DNA of 26,257 nucleotides from a bacterium (GCA_030697685.1 JAUYPF010000043.1:1-26257), one strand, 5' to 3'; counted from the stretch's first letter, positions 4,445 to 22,744 are shown. Program-made: numbers and translations. The notes: generated by a model not told the origin, from the letters alone.

Positions 4445-5490
4445 ATTTTAGGGGGATGTTTTAGAAGTTCATCAATAATTGTTATGCCAGATAAAATGTC
4501 TTTACTATTTACAATCCCAATGCCGCTATGCACATTTCTTACAGGAACTCCCAATACTGTGGTTGGAATTCCTCCTTTTGAAAGAGAAATATACAAAGCA
4601 TCTGTTGTTCCGAAATCACTAACCCCTGGTTGTAAACCTAGTTTTTTCTTTTTAGCAATATCCTTAATATTGTTATTTAAACAGCTATTAGAAAGTGTCT
4701 GCGAATCCATAATAGAAAGTACAGGACCTTTTCCTAATGCTCGTGTCATATCACCGCCTATATCATTGGCATCAAGTACATCAATGACAAGCGCCCACTC
4801 AGGATTAAGATTATATACAGAAGTCTTTGCTCCATACAAGCCAACTTCTTCTTGTACTGTAAACACAAAATAAATTTCTCCAGGATATTTTTTTACTTTT
4901 TTAATCAATTCCAGAAGTATAAAACAACCAACTCTATCATCAGCCGCCTTTCCCATAATATAATCTTTTGATCCTAAATAATGAGCTCTTTTTTCAAATT
5001 CAACAAATGTTCCAACTTCAACACCTATTTTCTGTAATTCAATTTTACTCAGCCCTGTATCCACAAATAAGTCTTCTTTTTTTGGAAGTTCTGTTATTGT
5101 TTCTCCAGAGCTAAGTTTTGAAGTAGAAATAATCCCCATAATTGTTTTTTTTCCATTAACTGGAATGAGAACTTTTTGATTAAGACATGCAAGTGTATCA
5201 ATGCCACCTATAGGAGAAATTTTAAGAGTCCCATCTACATTAATTTTATTTACCATAAGTCCAACTTCATCCATGTGTGCAACAAGCATCACACTTTGTC
5301 CTTTCCCTTTCTTATGCACAATTAAATTTCCGAACTTATCTACTTGCATATCTTTACAATAAGGCTTAATTTTTTTCATAAGATATGAACGAATAGCACT
5401 TTCATGTCCACTTGTAGAAAGAACATTCATTAGGGAAATCAACTCTTCCATAGGATTATATAAAGAAATAATCCTTATAAACTTTTGCAA
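4435..5490 (-). CDS. M42 family (TET/FrvX-like) aminopeptidase
   Basis: 351 aa with motifs typical of M42 peptidases (HMDEVGLMV, GKAADDRVGC, QEEVGLYGA). The true start may be the internal Met at 5451 (MEELISLMN...). Confidence 0.85.
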   Translation of the reverse strand: MQKFIRIISLYNPMEELISLMNVLSTSGHESAIRSYLMKKIKPYCKDMQVDKFGNLIVHKKGKGQSVMLVAHMDEVGLMVNKINVDGTLKISPIGGIDTLACLNQKVLIPVNGKKTIMGIISTSKLSSGETITELPKKEDLFVDTGLSKIELQKIGVEVGTFVEFEKRAHYLGSKDYIMGKAADDRVGCFILLELIKKVKKYPGEIYFVFTVQEEVGLYGAKTSVYNLNPEWALVIDVLDANDIGGDMTRALGKGPVLSIMDSQTLSNSCLNNNIKDIAKKKKLGLQPGVSDFGTTDALYISLSKGGIPTTVLGVPVRNVHSGIGIVNSKDILSGITIIDELLKHPPKICL

Positions 5491-6525
5491 ACTTTTTTAA
5501 ATACTGCCTTTAAACTGAAGTGTATGCATATACACAAAGCTTATTTCCAAGAGCCTACGAAAGGAGAAATTTCTCAATACACAAGAAGAGAAGCACAGAA
5601 TAATCTTGTAGATAGAATTAGTTCACTCGGAGAACAAGAACATATTTTAATAAATAGAATACTCATTCCTGAAAATTATAATAATAGCTGGCATTTTCTT
5701 CGTCATGGAGACAGAGTACATCTCAGATTTAGAGATCTTATTCAAAGATCAATAAGTAAAAGAAACGCAGCTGTTCCTGTAGATCTTCGTATCAGAGAGT
5801 TTGATGCTTTAAAAGAAAAAGCAGGTGCTTTCTCAGGCTATGACTATACACCTTTAGATATAAAACCATATAACCATCAAGATACAAGAACACGAAGAGT
5901 CAGCCTTGTTGAATGTCTCGAGGGTGCAAGGATCTATGCCTATACACACCAAGTGCCTATGCCACCTATTGAAGTGGAGCAATATACAGATGCAAAAGCA
6001 GTAGAAAAAGATGGGGCATTTTTTCATGTACATGTCCCGAGTAGAATCAAAGGACAGGGAAGATACCGCTTTAATCTTACTTCAGTTCCTATACGAGATA
6101 ATCTCAATAAATGGAGCATTGCCTGGGCAACTGCAAGTGAAGGACATGATTGTCTTCGAGGGATGTACATGGGCATTCGTTATGCACAAAAAGAAGACTC
6201 ACAGATATTTAATTGGTGTGCACATGAAATAGCTGCATACATTGCAACGATGAATAAGATGAATCACCGAGGAACGCGAACACCTTTACAAATGTCACAA
6301 ATTGCTTTACCAACACAATTAACAGTTAACTTTTACAAACGCCTTTGCGATAGTGTTCTTATTAACGATGCCAAAGTTGGAGAAAAAGAAAATATTCGAG
6401 TACTCAATAAAGCAGAGCAAGAATATCTCCTTTGGGGTCTGGTACATAAAAAAGGTCATAATCCAACATTTTTTGCAGAAGCAAATCTAAAAAATTATGA
6501 TTGGAAACTTAGGCACTTGGTTTGA
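5485..6525 (+). CDS. Hypothetical protein with atypical composition. Its 3' end carries the 43-bp repeat copy 1.
   Basis: 346 aa, rich in R/H/Q/T/G. This contrasts with neighbours rich in K/I/N/E. A likely start is Met at 5524. No confident family. The C-terminal HKKGHNPTFFAEANLKNYDWKL is vaguely reminiscent of the GH...Y box of tyrosine recombinases, not established. Confidence 0.55.
   Translation: MQTFLNTAFKLKCMHIHKAYFQEPTKGEISQYTRREAQNNLVDRISSLGEQEHILINRILIPENYNNSWHFLRHGDRVHLRFRDLIQRSISKRNAAVPVDLRIREFDALKEKAGAFSGYDYTPLDIKPYNHQDTRTRRVSLVECLEGARIYAYTHQVPMPPIEVEQYTDAKAVEKDGAFFHVHVPSRIKGQGRYRFNLTSVPIRDNLNKWSIAWATASEGHDCLRGMYMGIRYAQKEDSQIFNWCAHEIAAYIATMNKMNHRGTRTPLQMSQIALPTQLTVNFYKRLCDSVLINDAKVGEKENIRVLNKAEQEYLLWGLVHKKGHNPTFFAEANLKNYDWKLRHLV
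6470..6512 (+). repeat. 43-bp perfect direct repeat, copy 1 (inside the 3' coding end of 5485..6525)
   Basis: TTTTTGCAGAAGCAAATCTAAAAAATTATGATTGGAAACTTAG is identical to 9066-9108. Confidence 0.85.
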
Positions 6526-6600
6526 GAACATCGTTTTAATCTATAGTTTGTTGTATGTATTTTTTTAGTTTTAAATTTGGTGAAGTTTAGGTATTAATCC

Positions 6601-7647
6601 TTACCGTAACAATCCTGAAAACTTGACTAAATATTCAGCCATGTTAAATTTTTCTATAGATGGAAAATCACTAAACACTTGTACTTCTACAACACGAGGA
6701 CGCTCAAATATTTCATCAAACATGATATCTACACCTAATAAATTATAATTTAGTGCATGGGCAGTTTTCTTGGCAATCTCACGCATATTCATCAATGATG
6801 TATGAGGTAATAGCGACAAAGGGTGATGTTTAACATTCCCTCCTTGCGAAAAATTTGTTAAAATATTTTCTAAAGTATTAAATCGTGTAAAAAAATGAGG
6901 CACAATACCATTGACCACATACGCACGTACATCAAATTTACATCCCTCTTTGAGCAGAGGTGTTTTTATTTCTTTCTCAATAATTACTTCTCCTTCCAAA
7001 ATTTGTTGAAGTAATTCACTTCTATTAGTAATATCTGTAAATGGCCATCTTTCATTTTTCTCATAATTATTTAATTTATTATTCCCAACCTTATAATTAG
7101 TAAACCATCCTGATGCACCAAGATAGGTAATGCCTTTGCCTTCCGCACCATAGCGACATTTTACAAAAACGCCACGTTCTGATGAAATATGTTCTAAAAC
7201 ATTTAATATATTTCTATCTAAAATTTGTTCTGTAGTAGATATATTATTATATTGTAACGCTTTCACAACTTTAATCTTATCACGATCAAATGCTGCTTGT
7301 TGTGGTGTAATAATATACTCCAATCGTTCCTCATGGTATGCTTGACATAGTGATTCGTGTACTCCCTTAAAAAAATTATCAAGATTTTTGTAAATCAGAA
7401 AAGATGTACCATATAATGATCCATCTTTAGGCACTTCACATTCCTTATTCCAGAACGTATATGGAAAAAATAATAGAATAGTGATTTTCTCTTTGGAAAA
7501 ATGAGGCAATGTATCACCATACTCACAATGCTTCACTTCAAAACCTATTTTCTGAGCAAATTCATACACACTCAGTGCGTTTCGGTTTGTATACTGCGTA
7601 TCACCTTTTCCTAAAAGGAACAATCCTTTATCCATTGAATGTAGCAT
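6601..7647 (-). CDS. ATP-grasp family ligase (TTL / YheC-YheD-like)
   Basis: 348 aa. VFVKCRYGAEGKGITYL resembles the ATP-grasp central Gly-rich segment. C-terminal LLGVDIMFDEIFERPRVVEVQVFSDF matches the fELfGfDfmiD...EvN..P motif of TTL-like ATP-grasp enzymes. Confidence 0.6.
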   Translation of the reverse strand: MLHSMDKGLFLLGKGDTQYTNRNALSVYEFAQKIGFEVKHCEYGDTLPHFSKEKITILLFFPYTFWNKECEVPKDGSLYGTSFLIYKNLDNFFKGVHESLCQAYHEERLEYIITPQQAAFDRDKIKVVKALQYNNISTTEQILDRNILNVLEHISSERGVFVKCRYGAEGKGITYLGASGWFTNYKVGNNKLNNYEKNERWPFTDITNRSELLQQILEGEVIIEKEIKTPLLKEGCKFDVRAYVVNGIVPHFFTRFNTLENILTNFSQGGNVKHHPLSLLPHTSLMNMREIAKKTAHALNYNLLGVDIMFDEIFERPRVVEVQVFSDFPSIEKFNMAEYLVKFSGLLR

Positions 7648-7801
7648 CTTTTCTTAAAATCCTCAAGAAGTCTCCGAAAAAACTAAATCAATGATTAGAC
7701 AGGTTGCCAGTTCAACGTTTTTAAAATAAAAATCTTTTCTTTTGTGAAAATCCAATATAAATTTATTATGCTCTTCTGTCATTTTTTATATATCCTTTAA
7801 T

Positions 7802-8815
7802 TTACTCAATCTTACTCCCATTAAGAACATCCTGTGGCTTGTATTTTTCCCAGTCTTCTTTTTGCGGATCAAGAATCGCTTTTTTAATGGCCATTCCTAA
7901 ATCACCACAATTGCCAATGCTTCGTAACCCATTATTTTGTGCAATCATAGAGAGGACGGGATATATTTGTTGGCTATAAATTTTTGTTGATGTAATTGGT
8001 ACGAGACCAGGATAGCCATACAAGCTAATATGTACTCTTCCCTCTTCTAAATAGTAAGGTTGTGAATATGTTGTTGGTCGAATAGTTTCAATAGGATTTG
8101 GAAAATCAACGGAAAGATCAAGAATAATTAAATGTGGTGATGCTTTCTTGAGATGTTTTTTTGTGACAATATATTCGCGTCTGACACGAGCACTATCTGG
8201 CCAGGAAATACCATTAATCAACAAATCTAGGTCTTCGAGATGATGTTCAATGTATTTAAATTCCGACTTACGTAGAATCTTTGTCTCAATTCCTAGTCGA
8301 TGGCACGCTTTTAATGCTCCAGTTGAAACATTTCCATATCCTAGAACAAGCGCTTTCATGTCCCAAGGCATCTTTTGGCTATGTCTCAGAGCATAATAAA
8401 CCCCTATTTCCCCTGTAATTCCTGTTTGATTAATGATTCGATGATTTTTTTCATCACGAATATTTTCCAACTCAACTATGATAAGATTTTGTAACCCAGC
8501 ATAATAAATTCTTTCATGGTTTTGTTCACTGTGCATCATACATATAAGAATTTTTTTATTCATCAGCGTAAACTCCTCCGTTGATGGCGCTTTGAGTTTA
8601 ACAATCATATCGATATTTTCATACATTCTACGTGCATCACTCATAATTTGTGCGCCACTTTTCACATATTGTTCATCAGAAATGTGTACACCCTCACCTG
8701 CTCCCATTTCCACAAAAACATCATGCCCTTCTTCCACTAACTTCTGTATAGCATCTGGCATTACCGCCACACGTTTTTCTAATGGATACCTTTCTTTTGA
8801 TACTGCAATTCTCAT
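7802..8815 (-). CDS. AlaDH/PNT-family NAD(P)-dependent dehydrogenase (N5-carboxyethyl-ornithine synthase / saccharopine dehydrogenase-like)
   Basis: 337 aa. N-terminus MRIAVSKERYPLEKRVAVMPDAIQKLVEEGHDVFVEMGAGEGVHISDEQYVKSGAQI aligns by eye to the alanine dehydrogenase N-terminal domain. A Rossmann-like LVLGYGNVSTGALKACHRLG segment follows. It is too short and divergent for a canonical alanine dehydrogenase. Confidence 0.75.
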   Translation of the reverse strand: MRIAVSKERYPLEKRVAVMPDAIQKLVEEGHDVFVEMGAGEGVHISDEQYVKSGAQIMSDARRMYENIDMIVKLKAPSTEEFTLMNKKILICMMHSEQNHERIYYAGLQNLIIVELENIRDEKNHRIINQTGITGEIGVYYALRHSQKMPWDMKALVLGYGNVSTGALKACHRLGIETKILRKSEFKYIEHHLEDLDLLINGISWPDSARVRREYIVTKKHLKKASPHLIILDLSVDFPNPIETIRPTTYSQPYYLEEGRVHISLYGYPGLVPITSTKIYSQQIYPVLSMIAQNNGLRSIGNCGDLGMAIKKAILDPQKEDWEKYKPQDVLNGSKIE

Positions 8816-9065
8816 TATTTTTTAGGCAGAGAAAGGTCTTATATAAACTTAATGGAACTAACAGTATTTCCTAGTGATGCATTCTTTTAAATTTTTTAGG
8901 TGGTATTTCATCTATTCAGTTCACTATTCTTCCTTCAAGTTCCATATATTTGACCAACAAAACACACTACTAGACAGAGCCTTTCATTTGTTTTTCATAG
9001 GATGTTCGAGCAATGAATTACAGATTTTTTGCATTTCGATGATGTATTCCTTGAAATTGACCTGA

Positions 9066-9108
9066 TTTTTGCAGAAGCAAATCTAAAAAATTATGATTGG
9101 AAACTTAG
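9066..9108 (+). repeat. 43-bp perfect direct repeat, copy 2 (detached gene tail)
   Basis: Identical to 6470-6512. The same reading frame continues to a stop at 9119-9121 and encodes FAEANLKNYDWKLRHLH. Copy 1 encodes ...RHLV. Confidence 0.85.
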
Positions 9109-9117
9109 ACATCTTCA

Positions 9118-10122
9118 TTAAACTTCTTGAAAGAAATAAAACCCGCCTCGCTTCATAATTTTTTCTTCAGTGTTAAGAAAATTAGGAACAACTTTTTTTG
9201 TCACACGAATGATTCCATTTTGCAAACTAAAATAATCATCAACACTTCTATGAAGGTCATTCGTAGTAAATACATCTAAAGAATCACTCCACCCAAAAAT
9301 TCTTCCTGGCTGAACAAGAGTATGATTTAAAGTATCAAGGTCTTCTCGAAGTGTGAGAGCATAGTTTTTATATTTATATGTAGCCCACATTACAGAAACA
9401 TCTTCTTTTATTTTAAATTGAATTCCTCTATCATAAAACTTTGTTTGATAAGAGAGTTCCCCAGAATCTTCTAGAATTCCAATTGCATGAAAAAAGTTTT
9501 GTAAGGAAGTATAAGCATGAGCATCAGCTTCTGGACTATTATTAACTCCAGTTTCTACAAGCACTGCAGTAGTTCTCTTTCCCATCTTTTCTAATAATGA
9601 TCCAAGGTTCATATCTACAAGAAAAGCTGTAGGACTCAGTCTTTGTATCAAACGTTTTGTTTTAAAATCCATCTTTGGAATAACACCATGAGGAGGAATG
9701 CTCTTAGCAATATAGGAATGAATATCTAAAAAACCAATAAGAGGAAGCCTTTCAAAAAATGCTGCCATCTCTGCTGCAGTCCTTTGATCTTCTGTCTTTG
9801 GAGAATCAACCCACACACGATTAAAATCTTCTTTTCCAGGAACATCTCTTTGGTTAAAATAAGGTTTTAGTTGTGCTGCATGCACATTTCCAACAGAGAA
9901 ATACACATCAAAAAGATAGCTTCTTTTTTCTTCCGCTTCCTTAAGAAATGCACGAAATCCTGAAGGCTCTCTTCCATGAAGTAGTGTGGAAACAAGAACT
10001 GCACGAGAATGATCCTCCCCAGGAAGATGAAATAAAGTTGGCTTATCCATGGTAAAAAGTGCTTCTTTATCACTCAATCCACAAATACTTGTCACGCCTT
10101 CTCTATATTCAAAAAGACTCAT
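9118..10122 (-). CDS. AstE/AspA-family zinc hydrolase (succinylglutamate desuccinylase / aspartoacylase-like, M14-related)
   Basis: 334 aa. LLHGREPSG matches the HGNEpxG zinc-binding motif. A later DIHS matches the second His ligand region. Confidence 0.7.
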   Translation of the reverse strand: MSLFEYREGVTSICGLSDKEALFTMDKPTLFHLPGEDHSRAVLVSTLLHGREPSGFRAFLKEAEEKRSYLFDVYFSVGNVHAAQLKPYFNQRDVPGKEDFNRVWVDSPKTEDQRTAAEMAAFFERLPLIGFLDIHSYIAKSIPPHGVIPKMDFKTKRLIQRLSPTAFLVDMNLGSLLEKMGKRTTAVLVETGVNNSPEADAHAYTSLQNFFHAIGILEDSGELSYQTKFYDRGIQFKIKEDVSVMWATYKYKNYALTLREDLDTLNHTLVQPGRIFGWSDSLDVFTTNDLHRSVDDYFSLQNGIIRVTKKVVPNFLNTEEKIMKRGGFYFFQEV

Positions 10123-10200
10123 AGAAGAAGAAATTTTCCTTCTCTTTAAAAAGTTTTAGCATAAGAAAAGTTTATAAGAGAATTTTCCTTAAGATAAAAA

Positions 10201-10611
10201 ATGGTTTTATCATTACGAGTATACGAAAGGGCACTGCCACAAGGAGCAAAAGAATGGCAGCAAAAGATTCTTGGTGTTATTCGTTTAGGCAGTAATGTAA
10301 AAGAATTTATCTTTGGAAGAAATGCAGAAACAAGAGGTTTCTTATCAGGAATAGACAAGTATACATTTTTGGATTCTATGCATGGTAAATTTAAAATGTG
10401 GGCAACAGGGAATATCTATAAATTTACAGACATAAGTAAAAGTGGCGTTGCATTAAGAACAAACTTATCATTATGGATAATAAATTTTGGTCCAAGAGAA
10501 GCAATGTTAGAAAAAAATGATCCAACACAAATTAAAGTTGGCGACCAATTAATAATGAGGGATAAAACCAAAAGAAAAGAAATTATTTTAGAAGTCGTAC
10601 AAATCTATTGA
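10201..10611 (+). CDS. Hypothetical protein
   Basis: 136 aa, no confident family. The D-I-S-K-S-G segment only loosely resembles small beta-barrel nucleotide-binding domains. Confidence 0.35.
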   Translation: MVLSLRVYERALPQGAKEWQQKILGVIRLGSNVKEFIFGRNAETRGFLSGIDKYTFLDSMHGKFKMWATGNIYKFTDISKSGVALRTNLSLWIINFGPREAMLEKNDPTQIKVGDQLIMRDKTKRKEIILEVVQIY

Positions 10612-11075
10612 TCCTCTTCATCTTGCGAAGCAGTAATACTATGTAACCTTCTTTCCTTAGGCACCATGTTTCGCAGAAGATCATTCTTTAACATTCCACA
10701 TCCAAGAATATCATTTTCATGCTGAAGAATAACAAATCCACTATTCCCTTCAAAAGGAATATCTCCTCCTTTCATCCACAGCTCTGCTTGTGCTTTATTT
10801 ACAGGAATAATATTCTTTCGTATATCTAAGAGTTGTGCTCCTTCTATGCTTAAACGCAAGCCTTCTCTTTCTTTCTTTGCGAAATACATGCCAGAATTAT
10901 TAATGCGCATTCCTTGAGTATCTATTTGTGCAAAATCCTTACTCAAAACAAATATCTTATCCTGGGAATTTTCAAAAAATAACACATCAGGTTCTTCTGT
11001 AACACCAAACTGTTCTTTCAATTGGTGAAATAGCTCTTTTTTTTCCTTGCCATTATAGAATCCTACGCGTTGCAT
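10605..11075 (-). CDS. Nip7-like PUA-domain RNA-binding protein (archaeal ribosome biogenesis factor homolog)
   Basis: The C-terminal segment ENDILGCGMLKNDLLRNMVPKERRLHS aligns with the PUA region of archaeal Nip7. The ORF-track start at 11135 is probably too long. I placed the start at Met 11075 (MQRVGFYNG...). Confidence 0.55.
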   Translation of the reverse strand: MQRVGFYNGKEKKELFHQLKEQFGVTEEPDVLFFENSQDKIFVLSKDFAQIDTQGMRINNSGMYFAKKEREGLRLSIEGAQLLDIRKNIIPVNKAQAELWMKGGDIPFEGNSGFVILQHENDILGCGMLKNDLLRNMVPKERRLHSITASQDEEDQ

Positions 11076-11127
11076 GGAAAAAGAAAAGAGGAATATCTTT
11101 ATAAATTCTATGTTCTCCAAAGGATGT

Positions 11128-12765
11128 ATGGACAAGGAGATAGAAAAATGGGCTTTGCATAATGCAGTTAAATTCCAAGGAAAAGCAAATCCAGGTGCAG
11201 TACTAGGTCAACTGTTTGCAGAGAATCCCAAACTCAAAGAACAAGCAAAAGAACTCTCAAAAAAGATCCAAGAGATTGTCAAGCAAGTTAACAGTCTTTC
11301 TCCTGAAGAACAAAGAAAAAAATTAGAGAAGCTAGCTCCAGAACTTCTCGAAGAAAAGAAAGAAAAGAAAAAAAGGGAATTACCAGAGCTTCCAAATGTG
11401 CATGGAACTGTTGTAACAAGAATTCCTCCTGAACCTAGTAAATATTTACATTTAGGCCATGCAATGTCTTTCTTAATTAATTATATGTATGCAAAAAAAT
11501 ACAATGGGAAATGTATTCTTCGCATAGATGATACAAATCCGGACAAAGCAAAAAAAGAATATTACGATGCTTTGCATGAAGATCTTCTCTGGTTACGCAT
11601 TGCTCCAGATAAAACAATTATTGCTTCTCAAGAGATGGAAACTTTTTACAAATATGCAGAGCTACTCATAAACAAAGAACGTGCATATGTTTGTTTTTGT
11701 GATAAAGAAAAAGTAAGTAAATTTAGAATGCAGGCAAAAATCTGTGACCATAGAACGCAGAATCCAGAAAAAAATATGATTCTTTGGAAAGATATGCTTG
11801 CAAAGAAATACAAAGCTGGAGAAGTAACTTTACGTTTAGTTGGAGAAATGGACTGTACAAATGCAGTCATGCGTGATCCTATTCTCTTTAGAATTGTCAA
11901 AGCACAACATACTCTAACAAAAGATAAATATGTAGTCTGGCCAACCTATGATTTCGAAACAGTGATTGGAGAAGAGATTACTGGAGTAACGCATATTTTA
12001 CGAAGTAATGAATTTGGAGAAATGCGTATAGAACTCCAAGATTATATTAAAGATATTTTAGGATTTAAAAAACAAGAAGTTTTGCAATATGGAAGAATGA
12101 CAGTTCATGGTTTTGAAACGCATGGTCGTGTGATTAGAGAGAAAATAGAGAATGGTGAAGTAGAAGGCTGGGATGATCCAAGATTGATGACTTTGAAAGC
12201 CCTTCGAAGAAGAGGTATTGTTCCAGAAACTTTTTATGAGTTAGTCTTAGAAGTTGGTCTTTCTCCAACTGCAACAAATCTTGATTGGAGTGTTGTTGCT
12301 TCTATTAACAGAAAAATTATCGATCCAACAACGAAAAGATATTTTTTCGTGAAAGATCCTAAAAAAATAAAAATAAATAATACTTTGAAACAAGCAAAAG
12401 CTCCATTACATCCTGAACATAAAGAAATGGGCTTCAAAACAATTCATTTTGATGATGAGTTTTATGTGCAAGATGATATTGAGAATGGAAAAATATATCG
12501 TTTTATGCATCTCTTTAACTTTAAAGATAATAGTTATGTATCAGAAGAATACGATCCTGAGCTAAAAGCAAAAATTATTCATTGTGTTCCAATCAAAGAT
12601 GCTGTGGATATTCATGTTCTCATGGCAGATGGTTCTCTTATAAAAGGAAAAGGAGAGAAGGCTTTAAAAGAACTCAAAGAAGGTGAAGTTATCCAATTTG
12701 AACGATTATTCTTCTGTCGTTTGGATAATAAAGAAAAAATGCTTTTTGTGTATACGCATGATTAA
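11128..12765 (+). CDS. gltX: Glutamyl-tRNA synthetase, archaeal type
   Basis: Class I HIGH motif in PEPSKYLHLGHA and archaeal or eukaryotic-type GluRS architecture. I placed the start at the internal Met (MDKEIEKWALHNAV...). That is the conserved archaeal GluRS N-terminus. The ORF-track start at 11074 adds 18 residues. Confidence 0.88.
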   Translation: MDKEIEKWALHNAVKFQGKANPGAVLGQLFAENPKLKEQAKELSKKIQEIVKQVNSLSPEEQRKKLEKLAPELLEEKKEKKKRELPELPNVHGTVVTRIPPEPSKYLHLGHAMSFLINYMYAKKYNGKCILRIDDTNPDKAKKEYYDALHEDLLWLRIAPDKTIIASQEMETFYKYAELLINKERAYVCFCDKEKVSKFRMQAKICDHRTQNPEKNMILWKDMLAKKYKAGEVTLRLVGEMDCTNAVMRDPILFRIVKAQHTLTKDKYVVWPTYDFETVIGEEITGVTHILRSNEFGEMRIELQDYIKDILGFKKQEVLQYGRMTVHGFETHGRVIREKIENGEVEGWDDPRLMTLKALRRRGIVPETFYELVLEVGLSPTATNLDWSVVASINRKIIDPTTKRYFFVKDPKKIKINNTLKQAKAPLHPEHKEMGFKTIHFDDEFYVQDDIENGKIYRFMHLFNFKDNSYVSEEYDPELKAKIIHCVPIKDAVDIHVLMADGSLIKGKGEKALKELKEGEVIQFERLFFCRLDNKEKMLFVYTHD

Positions 12766-12828: not shown

Positions 12829-13503
12829 ATGGAACTTCTCAAGTTAGAAAATGTATATAAGATATATTCTTTAGGAGAAGAAAACATAGCCGCAATAAAC
12901 GGCATTTCTTTATTGATAAATAAAGGCGACTTTGTTGCTTTGATTGGCCCATCTGGTTCAGGAAAAAGTACTGCAATGAATTTAATTGGTTGCTTAGACA
13001 TTGCGAGCAAAGGAAATATGTATCTCAATGGTCTAAACATTCAAAACCTTCCTGAAAGTAACCTCGCACAAATTCGTGGAAAGAAGATTGGCTTCATTTT
13101 TCAAACATTTAATCTCATTCCAAGCTTAGACGCTCTAGAGAATGTTGCCCTTCCTATGACTTTCCAAAATGTTCCAAGACCTATTCGCATAAAAAGAGCA
13201 AAAGAATTGCTAAAACAAGTAGGTCTTGCAGATAGAATCTACCATTTACCAAATCAACTTTCTGGAGGCCAAAAACAAAGAGTCGCAATCGCTCGTTCTC
13301 TAATAAATGATCCAGATATTATCCTTGCAGATGAGCCAACAGGAAATTTAGATACAAAAACTGGTGATGAAATTATGAATATCTTAGTAGATCTCAACAA
13401 AAAAGGAAAAACAATAATCCTTGTAACACATAATCATGAACTTACCAAGTTAGCAAATAAAATAATTACACTCAAAGATGGAAAAGCTATGGAGGCACAA
13501 TGA
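12829..13503 (+). CDS. ABC transporter ATP-binding protein (LolD/MacB-like)
   Basis: Walker [11 protein letters not shown]-loop, signature [15 protein letters not shown], Walker [13 protein letters not shown]-loop VTHN. Confidence 0.9.
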
Positions 13504-20880: not shown

Positions 20881-20904
20881 TTTTTTTTAAGTTTCTAATG
20901 GTGA

Positions 20905-20939
20905 CCGAAAATCTTCCTGATTTTTCGGAAATCTTCCTG
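20905..20939 (+). promoter_or_regulatory. Tandem 20-bp direct repeat carrying the inverted-repeat motif CGRAAATCTTCCTG, 2 copies
   Basis: CCGAAAATCTTCCTG at 20905-20919 and TCGGAAATCTTCCTG at 20925-20939, each followed by a T-run. GGAA-ATC-TTCC is an inverted repeat with a 3-nt spacer. Located between the phasin-like stop (plus a T8 run) and the PIN gene start. Confidence 0.5.
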
Positions 20940-20985
20940 TTTTTTGGTGTAAGAGTTTATTAAAACACTTTTCATAAAATGTTCT

Positions 20986-21411
20986 ATGGCTCCGTATTAT
21001 GTTGATACTTGTATTTGGCTGAACATAATAAAAAAGGAAGAAAAAGAATATGAGTCCTCAAAAAAATTCTTAGATGCCTTGATGACATTAAAATGCACAG
21101 TCTTGTACTCTGGAGCAATTTTAAGAGAATTAGAAATAAAGCTTCCCAAACAAGAGTTTCAAAAGGTAAAAAATCAATTAAATAATGGCAGCTCATTTCG
21201 AGAAGTAGAGTCTTCAGTTGAAGATAGGAATAAAGCAAGAAGAATTGAGTCTCAATATAACTTTTCGATAAGCTTTTATGATCTTTTACATATGGTTCTT
21301 GCAAGAAAGGAAAATGCTATTTTGGTGACAAGAGATGAATTCTTACTAGATGTTGCTAAAGTGTATAAAATCCAAACTATGAAACCAGAAGATTTTCTAA
21401 GCACTATTTAA
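20986..21411 (+). CDS. PIN-domain ribonuclease (VapC-like toxin candidate)
   Basis: 141 aa. N-terminal YYVDTCIWLNII gives the first acidic residue in the PIN position. C-terminal ILVTRDEFL gives the T/S-x-D motif. No RHH/AbrB antitoxin gene lies upstream. Confidence 0.6.
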   Translation: MAPYYVDTCIWLNIIKKEEKEYESSKKFLDALMTLKCTVLYSGAILRELEIKLPKQEFQKVKNQLNNGSSFREVESSVEDRNKARRIESQYNFSISFYDLLHMVLARKENAILVTRDEFLLDVAKVYKIQTMKPEDFLSTI

Positions 21412-21570: not shown

Positions 21571-21616
21571 GCTTTATCTATAACACCCATACTTAATAAG
21601 CTTTTTCAAGCAATTT

Positions 21617-21631
21617 CCGGAAATCTTCCGG
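21617..21631 (+). promoter_or_regulatory. Third copy of the motif, here a perfect palindrome: CCGGAAATCTTCCGG
   Basis: Inverted repeat CCGGAA-ATC-TTCCGG. The same GGAAATCTTCC core occurs at 20905-20939. It sits 8 nt downstream of the stop of 21639..22013. Confidence 0.5.
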
Positions 21632-21638
21632 ATTATCT

Positions 21639-22080: not shown

Positions 22081-22428
22081 ATGGATGAAAAACAATTAGC
22101 TGAGAAGGCCTATGAAGCTGTTGAAATAGCAAAAACTTCTGGGAAACTTAAACGTGGAACAAACGAAGTAACAAAGACAGTAGAAAAAGGTCTTGCAAAA
22201 CTTGTAGTAGTTGCAAAAGATACTGCTCCTGCAGAAATAATCATGCACCTTGGTCCTTTATGCAAGGAAAAGAAAGTTCCTATGGTAACAGTTCCAAGTA
22301 AAGTAGAATTAGGAACCGCAGCAGGAATGCCGATTGGTGCAAGTGCAATTGCAATTGTGCAAGAAGGCGAAGCAAAGAATATAATTAAACAAATTTCAGA
22401 TTATGTAAACGAAAATGGCAGCTCCTAA
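22081..22428 (+). CDS. rpl7ae: 50S ribosomal protein L7Ae
   Basis: [55 protein letters not shown] is the L7Ae/L30e K-turn binding fold. I placed the start at the internal Met 22081. The ORF-track start at 21904 adds an implausible extension. Confidence 0.9.
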
Positions 22429-22744
22429 AAAAGAAGGTAAAGAAGAGAAAAAACCAGCTCAAACTGATGGAAAACCAGTAGTAGCGCAAGCTCCTGCAGT
22501 AAATCCAACAGACAAGCCTAGAGCTTCTATTTTCACAGAAGCTGTCCCTGCACGTGTAGAAGAAATCATTGGCAGAACAGGAACACGAGGAGAAATTATC
22601 CAAGTGCGCTGTAAAATTCTTGATGGCAGAGATGTAAACAAAATTCTCTCTCGAAACGTGAAAGGTCCAGTGCGCTTAAAGGACATTCTTATGTTGAGAG
22701 AAACAGAAATTGAAGCAAGAAAGCTCAATAAGGGGAAACGATAA
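22415..22744 (+). CDS. rps28e: 30S ribosomal protein S28e with a ~40-aa Lys/Pro/Ala-rich N-terminal extension
   Basis: The core [49 protein letters not shown] matches S28e. The only in-frame start is ATG 22415, which overlaps the rpl7ae 3' end by 14 nt. Confidence 0.85.

Follow-up and report, generated by a model that had tools for sequence, protein, structure and literature searches.

A contig from a Woesearchaeota-like DPANN archaeon (GCA_030697685.1, JAUYPF010000043.1), analysed at its full length of 26,257 nucleotides and referred to here as the window, carries a two-gene cassette wedged between two convergent genes, a conserved hypothetical gene (X) and a remote AstE/AspA-like gene (Y), and bracketed by a perfect 43-bp direct repeat of the X 3' end. 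The initial annotation had read this arrangement as an integration scar, left when a site-specific recombinase acted on a 43-bp attachment (att) core and the incoming element supplied a replacement 3' end for X. Comparison with related genomes supports the insertion and not the recombinase, the att core or the replacement end. In the history that is probably correct, a single old non-homologous insertion duplicated the X/Y junction, the descendant lineages trimmed the duplicate differently, and gene conversion may account for the perfect short cores. The 43-bp repeat appears to be what is left of a larger duplication of the target and not an attachment site used by a dedicated enzyme.

The repeat at the ends of the cassette

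Positions 6470-6512 and 9066-9108 of the window are identical at 43 of 43 nucleotides, with a start-to-start distance of 2596 bp, and both encode in frame the peptide FAEANLKNYDWKLRH of the X C-terminus, exactly as first annotated. The pair is the sole long near-perfect direct repeat within the window and is not a product of chance, since 100 dinucleotide shuffles of the window contained no match of the 43-mer at three mismatches or fewer. Both copies had been taken for gene ends, which is correct for the left one, where the C-terminal coding sequence of X ends in ...FFAEANLKNYDWKLRHLV followed by the stop codon. The right copy is a 56-bp fragment made up of core and tail, which lies in the same frame as X and reads IFAEANLKNYDWKLRHLH before its stop codon; an in-frame stop is located 18 codons upstream of the core, and neither global alignment, local alignment nor nhmmer found similarity to X to the left of it. 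What lies on the right is a remnant without function, derived from the X end, and does not form a gene end by itself. A match to the Rfam family SNORD37 (C/D-box) at 9035-9088 on the plus strand crosses the left edge of this copy with 23 bits against a gathering value of 45 (E 0.45); a C/D-box small nucleolar RNA at this position was considered and set aside as probably a chance match, given the poor box spacing and the E value.

To the right of the core the two copies part. The nine nucleotides that follow it carry four substitutions, all of them synonymous (AGG/AGA, CAC/CAT, TTG/CTT), and the tails then end differently, with GTT TGA on the left and CAT TAA on the right, which again agrees with the initial annotation. 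Over the whole tail 7 of 13 nucleotides differ, so that a core of 43/43 identity adjoins a tail of 6/13. This onset of divergence at the core edge had been taken to speak against a simple tandem duplication. Among orthologues, however, the 15-nucleotide X tail is hypervariable and differs at 5-9 of its 15 positions, while the core differs at just 5-7 of 43, which offers another explanation for the sharp edge: since the tail varies even between orthologues, the oddity to be explained is the homogenised core and not the diverged tail. Position 13 of the core carries a window-specific substitution that is common to both copies. Among the comparison loci, which are numbered with an L and include the contigs encoding the closest relatives of X, the left tail of the window resembles that of L003 and the right tail that of L001.

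Other loci and viruses had been proposed as places where the 43-mer might recur. The search with it covered the window and viral contigs, and found nothing in the window beyond the two copies and no match in the viral contigs; genome and metagenome collections were scanned with the X protein and not with the 43-mer. A second assembly, built independently and taken from Logan (L120, SRR13727529), matches window 6517-11431 with 99.98% identity. It reproduces the right copy with its flanks and the entire cassette, and its contig breaks off on the right side of the left core, 5 bp short of it. The features of the locus are as follows.

5524..6525, plus strand: gene X, conserved DPANN hypothetical protein of 333 amino acids (open reading frame; 42 homologues)
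6470..6512, plus strand: left repeat copy, functional C-terminal coding sequence of X (43/43 match, shuffle test)
6513..6525, plus strand: X tail, G CAC TTG GTT TGA (7/13 nucleotides unlike the right tail)
6526..6563, no strand: spacer (alignment to L001 10493-10660, z 1.5)
6564..6599, plus strand: 3'-end pseudogene fragment of X2, a paralogue of X, last ~36 bp, next to the ATP-grasp stop codon (89% identity to L001 10657-10692)
6601..7647, minus strand: cassette gene 1, YheC/D/TTL-type ATP-grasp ligase (Pfam and NCBIfam)
7663..7782, minus strand: stump of a cyanophycin-synthetase-like ATP-grasp gene, 39 codons in frame (similarity to the L116 gene)
7802..8815, minus strand: cassette gene 2, AlaDH/PNT-family dehydrogenase (Pfam AlaDh_PNT_N and AlaDh_PNT_C)
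8816..8895, minus strand: dehydrogenase gene promoter region, where the inserted DNA ends on the right (conservation in L001 and L116)
8896..9065, no strand: 170-bp segment between the insert and the right copy (no match)
9066..9108, plus strand: right repeat copy, remnant of the X end (43/43 match; also in L120)
9109..9121, plus strand: remnant tail, A CAT CTT CAT TAA, overlapping the Y stop codon (sequence comparison)
9118..10122, minus strand: gene Y, remote AstE/AspA-like, convergent with X (Pfam match of an orthologue, and motif)

Empty and filled sites in related genomes

Five relatives (L003/L005, L004, L036, L007 and L037) are free of the cassette and show the empty site that the initial annotation had predicted, in which an M42 peptidase gene is followed by X and the convergent Y with a single tail. 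In these genomes X and Y overlap tail to tail by 17, 17, 9, 11 and 11 bp, respectively. Their X genes are 79-80% identical to that of the window in L003/L005, L004 and L036, 66% in L007 and 57% in L037. Judged by the nucleotide identities of the flanking genes, L001 is the sister of the window organism (M42 peptidase 88%, PUA 87%, glutamyl-tRNA synthetase 85%), L003, L036 and L004 form a second clade, and L007 and L037 are outgroups. Since both the outgroups and this second clade are empty and have overlapping X and Y genes, the empty arrangement is ancestral and the cassette is an insertion. The overlap also means that an insertion spares both genes only if it duplicates the junction.

L001 carries the same two cassette genes at this site, oriented as in the window, and so do L002, an independent assembly of L001, and L006, a duplicate record; the filled structure of the sister type is reproduced in the two assemblies L001 and L002. 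A second 43-mer is absent from L001 at up to eight mismatches, the single equivalent being located at the X end. What flanks the cassette there is a repeat of 76 perfect bp (10475-10550 and 12935-13010), composed of the last 18 bp of X and 58 bp of the Y 3' end, which extends for a further 42 bp at 31/42 identity, so that the duplication spans at least ~118 bp in L001 and at least 56 bp in the window. At the right junction of L001 a 30-bp internal fragment of X is joined directly to the 18-bp tail; this fragment matches window X 6316-6345 at 27/30 and the X gene of L001 itself at 25/30 (z 4.3 against shuffles). A trace of the 43-bp core had been considered at this junction and is better explained as the internal X fragment.

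The remnants in the two genomes are arranged in opposite fashion, with a Y-end remnant beside X in L001 and an X-end remnant beside Y in the window. Target sequence lies on both sides of the insert in each case, represented by the X end in the window and by the X tail and Y end in L001. The two repeats share no segment apart from the X tail, which is precisely the part that is not identical between the two copies of the window.

Outside its perfect tract the L001 duplicate is identical at 56 of 72 positions (78%; 31/42 and 25/30 combined), and the window and L001 are 82% identical in X and 74% in Y. The duplicate is as diverged as the two genomes and the duplication is therefore old. At 20% divergence, the absence of any difference over 43 and 76 positions is unexpected, with P values of ~7e-5 and ~4e-8, respectively. 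The cassette itself is 86.6% and 85.0% identical in nucleotide sequence between the window and L001, followed by L116 (83%, 82-83.5%) and L117 (78%, 74%), and it has diverged as far as its flanks, which fits a single insertion in the common ancestor. The left tail of the window (RHLV and a stop codon) was considered as the product of a deletion in the distal part of a lost Y-end copy. Positions 10556-10600 of L001 would give it after removal of 5 bp; the alignment falls short of significance (z 1.5), and the tail resembles that of L003 just as closely.

Chromosomal origin of the inserted DNA

The cargo had been annotated as an ATP-grasp ligase and an AlaDH/PNT dehydrogenase, and Pfam agrees for both. 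The ligase shares 78%, 79% and 72% amino-acid identity with its counterparts in L001, L116 and L117, respectively, and the dehydrogenase gene 86.6%, 83% and 78% nucleotide identity. Upstream of the dehydrogenase gene a TATA-like TTTATATA is present at 8847-8840 on the minus strand, and the surrounding region, 8816-8895, matches L001 12843-12923 and L116 144-101 (blastn).

Close homologues of the ATP-grasp protein place the same genes in another chromosomal context, next to a gene termed X2, which encodes a distant paralogue of X (447 amino acids, 32% identity over the C-terminal half) and is widespread in Woesearchaeota. In L116 the order is an AlaDH-like dehydrogenase gene (83% amino-acid identity), a cyanophycin-synthetase-like ATP-grasp gene, a YheC/D ATP-grasp gene (79% amino-acid identity) and a convergent X2, while in L117/L118 it is a PIN gene, the AlaDH-like gene (79%), the ATP-grasp gene (72%) and a convergent X2. 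Pieces of this neighbourhood persist within the cassette. The 154-bp spacer between the two cassette genes (7648-7801) contains a stump of the middle gene, consisting of 30 N-terminal and 9 C-terminal codons, that aligns to the intact gene of L116 (1184-2215) with 82% identity over 111 bp at the 5' end and 80% over 46 bp at the 3' end. The deletion junction of the stump lies at a repeated SLI-coding motif, and in L001 the same gene has been lost without a trace. At the other end of the cassette the window retains the X2 fragment, which adjoins the ATP-grasp stop codon as the complete X2 does in L116 and L117, and in L001 a stretch of ~88 bp between the Y-end remnant and the ATP-grasp stop codon aligns to the X2 3' ends of L116, L117 and L121. 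The X2 fragment and the middle-gene stump together indicate that the insert is a contiguous piece of the X2-adjacent three-gene operon that has been eroding since, and the presence of such non-functional pieces of another locus's neighbours in the insert is what characterises a segmental insertion. The spacer at 6526-6563 may comprise the rest of the Y-end copy and the first half of the X2 fragment, for which the alignment (z 1.5) is suggestive only.

The operon is an accessory, patchily distributed unit that bears no mark of self-mobility. X2 occurs without it in L121, L122 and L124, and at the X2 loci no gene-end repeats flank the operon. The gene upstream of the operon in L119 was tested as a Y homologue and is not one. 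The interval between X2 and a radical-SAM gene is variable: in L117 (6525-8879) it contains HicAB, MazE/PIN and the AlaDH/ATP-grasp operon, and the same interval of the related L122 (5337-7732) has a 176-amino-acid gene, a rhodanese gene and a 165-amino-acid gene instead.

At the right end of the cassette, window 8880-9065 was considered as a decayed upstream part of X, and was discarded after global alignment, local alignment and nhmmer were all negative. An open reading frame of 63 codons (8874-9065) stops exactly at the repeat edge, and the length of 8896-9065 is close to that of the X part expected there from the ancestral duplication.

A proposed history of the locus

The comparison of empty, filled and X2-type loci shows an ancestral overlap of X and Y, an insertion from an X2-type locus, a duplication of the junction and its differential decay. 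To connect these we infer a single origin, a non-homologous mechanism of insertion and gene conversion. The history starts from convergent X and Y genes with overlapping 3' ends. The ancestor shared by the window organism and L001 would have received, between these two genes, a piece of a different chromosomal locus, comprising in order the last ~90 bp of X2, the YheC/D ATP-grasp gene, the cyanophycin-synthetase-like ATP-grasp gene, the AlaDH-like dehydrogenase gene and its promoter. The join would have been non-homologous, by way of break repair, template switching or the unequal joining of chromosome copies. The duplication that it left around the X/Y junction reached at least ~220 bp into X on one side and ~100 bp into Y on the other.

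The two lineages then trimmed the duplicate in different ways. The window lineage kept 56 bp of the X end beside Y and lost the Y-end copy beside X, and the sister kept ~100 bp of the Y end beside X and only 30 + 18 bp of X beside Y; the middle gene of the cassette was deleted in both. The perfect tracts of 43 bp and 76 bp would reflect recent intrachromosomal gene conversion between the flanking repeats, bounded on one side by the end of homology and on the other by the hypervariable tail. The repeat would be a scar, although rare loss of the cassette by repeat-mediated deletion could still occur.

Several points weigh against this reconstruction. The segment at 8896-9065 resembles neither X, Y nor X2, nor any of the other loci compared, and is left unexplained by it. 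The case for gene conversion comes from the pattern of identity, the 43-bp block is short as a conversion substrate, and on its left side the perfect tract stops at the very point where all detectable homology stops. The single origin follows by parsimony from just two filled genomes, the junctions of which are not significantly alignable. Furthermore, the left tail is L003-like and the 3' part of Y is nearer to L003/L004 than to the sister L001; homologous recombination with relatives may have reshaped the junction. Finally, the original insertion junctions have decayed, with no microhomology visible, and the mechanism is unreadable from them.

Alternative explanations

Some of these points would be accommodated by two independent recent insertions at an X/Y hotspot, or by lateral spread through Campbell-type integration of a circle bearing the junction. 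Either would account for the duplication of different segments in the two genomes, each with a perfect core, for the L003-like left and L001-like right tails of the window, as in a chimera of donor and recipient, for the conflict between the 3' part of Y and the phylogeny of the flanks, and for an operon that is patchily distributed and located in variable regions elsewhere. Independent or lateral acquisition is nevertheless unlikely, as the divergence of the cassette equals that of the flanks, the two cassettes are mutually closest, the site, the orientation and the attached X2 fragment are alike in both genomes, and the L001 duplicate is old, being ~22% diverged outside its perfect tract.

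It would be a long shot to regard the operon as a mobile islet that has no recombinase and moves, in DPANN archaea, from the 3' end of one X-family (SWIM-like) gene to that of another, with the gene-end duplicate serving as an att-like site for host recombination and thereby allowing excision as a circle and homology-based re-integration into relatives.

Placement of the islet at a ~43-bp att core in the X 3' end by a recombinase acting in trans, with the islet supplying the replacement end, is highly improbable. The sharp-edged perfect core between homologous, diverged tails, the relatives with empty sites and the position of the cassette beside 3' ends of X-family genes in three contexts are what such an event would leave. 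The sister, however, has no second 43-mer and repeats another segment, so that no core is common to both integrants, and the X tail, as the one segment shared by the two repeats, is non-identical in the window. At the X2 locus the cassette is without flanking gene-end repeats, and the core is absent from the viral contigs, in which the ATP-grasp gene has no relative either. Pfam scans of 30 window open reading frames detected no integrase, resolvase or transposase domain, in line with the initial annotation, which had noted no recognisable integrase in the cassette. No inverted repeats are present at the cassette ends and no tRNA genes or known RNAs around the cassette. In place of defined element ends and element functions it has pseudogene debris, namely a piece of a former neighbour and the stump of a deleted gene. 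The initial annotation had also raised an SSV-type model and proposed a structural check of X for a tyrosine recombinase fold. X is intact at 333 amino acids and has no sequence match in Pfam, NCBIfam or PDB, and its confident AlphaFold2 model (predicted local distance difference test 84.7, predicted template modelling score 0.89) has no fold neighbour and no match to a recombinase-like fold, which argues against that model. As the window has no recombinase, the two integrants share no core and no free attP form was found in the viral contigs or at the X2 loci, a site-specific element is not supported.

The inverse scenario, with the cassette present here from the outset and lost from the empty genomes by recombination between the flanking repeats, is scarcely credible. 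Direct repeats of 43-76 bp are able to mediate deletion, with the H47 island of E. coli as an analogue (PMC5426353), and Y points in the same direction as the dehydrogenase and ATP-grasp genes, but both outgroups (L007, L037) and the whole sister clade are empty with overlapping X and Y, and the X2 fragment inside the cassette shows its origin from the X2 locus. Least credible of all is an assembly artefact, in which an empty site had been mis-joined to a separate 2.6-kb circle or a mixture of strains had been collapsed. In its favour, only the window contig shows the left junction, made up of X body, core and left tail, and the Logan contig breaks off 5 bp before it would enter the left core. 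That contig, however, reproduces the right junction, the cassette and the left tail at 99.98%, and the 43-bp repeat is shorter than the reads and than the larger k-mers used in assembly. For the sister, two assemblies agree on the same filled structure, and X requires a C-terminal end, the assembled one being in frame.

Genes X and Y and their genomic setting

X had been annotated at 5485..6525, of which the end is correct, while the start is probably the ATG at 5524, the start used in the database entry and in most homologues. Y itself has no Pfam match, one Y orthologue matches AstE_AspA_cat with an E value of 4.8e-8, and an invariant H49-G50-x-E52 motif is present. Just beyond Y, a gene for a 136-amino-acid hypothetical protein (10201-10611) shares 47-65% nucleotide identity with orthologues that share 77-84% among themselves, a divergence that points to lineage-specific replacement or strong acceleration.

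The window contig is archaeal and of low G+C content (~33%), with genes including those for L1, L10P/P0, the acidic stalk protein P1, L7Ae and S28e, and the glutamyl-tRNA synthetase that it encodes is of the archaeal type. The nearest relatives of the organism are Woesearchaeota metagenome-assembled genomes. The source genome (database entry Q8R18_04365) is labelled "[bacterium]" by NCBI; its gene content and nearest relatives are archaeal, of a Woesearchaeota-like DPANN lineage. Elsewhere in the window, a partly palindromic 21-nucleotide motif (TTTCCGGAAATCTTCCGGATT-like) occurs in three copies, at 20902-20942 and 21614-21634, on either side of a PIN-domain gene (20986-21411), and these copies could be candidate operator sites. 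The gene for the acidic stalk protein P1 and the S28e gene, the latter at its N-terminus, contain low-complexity coding repeats rich in Lys and Glu (2870-2924 and 22420-22462).

Relation to known systems and significance

Integrative elements that target the 3' ends of genes are well known. The SSV1-type fuselloviruses use a 44-bp att core in a tRNA gene, and P4-like and other tRNA-targeting islands as well as dusA-targeting islands insert at the 3' end of their target gene and carry a replacement end. The locus described here resembles them in that a direct repeat of a gene end brackets foreign DNA, the target is intact and relatives have empty sites. It differs in that no integrase was found and no core is common to the two known integrants, in that the repeat is the remnant of a duplication of several hundred bp involving two genes, and in that a fragment of a chromosomal operon, undergoing erosion, makes up the cargo. 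A direct repeat of the target at both ends of the insert is likewise seen with transposons and insertion sequences, but here the repeat is far longer than any duplication made by a transposase, and no terminal inverted repeats or transposase were found.

Template switching, microhomology-mediated break-induced replication and unequal joining give rise to insertions with long target duplications, which are then subject to gene conversion. Segmental insertion with concerted evolution of this kind shares with the window locus a target duplicated around DNA copied from another locus, a patchy identity in which perfect tracts stand beside ~20% divergence, and deletions at short repeats; the difference is that the junctions are here too decayed for microhomology and the mechanism is inferred. 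A further parallel is the H47 genomic island of E. coli, which has no recombinase and excises between short direct repeats (PMC5426353). Like it, the cassette is a small recombinase-less insert with direct repeats that could support host-mediated deletion; unlike H47, the cassette has empty sites that are ancestral and not revertant, and repeats that vary by lineage.

Taken together, the locus adds a further case to a type of event already known and belongs to ordinary genome evolution. It provides a clean and datable example of an accessory operon wedged between overlapping convergent genes of a streamlined DPANN genome with neither gene broken, for which empty, filled and donor-like loci are all in hand and in which sister lineages have eroded the duplicate in different ways but retained short identical tracts. 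For genome scans it carries the caution that a perfect gene-end repeat around cargo is insufficient to call site-specific integration. X and X2, moreover, represent a widespread and structurally unmatched DPANN family that is found repeatedly beside this operon, and this family may outweigh the repeat in worth.

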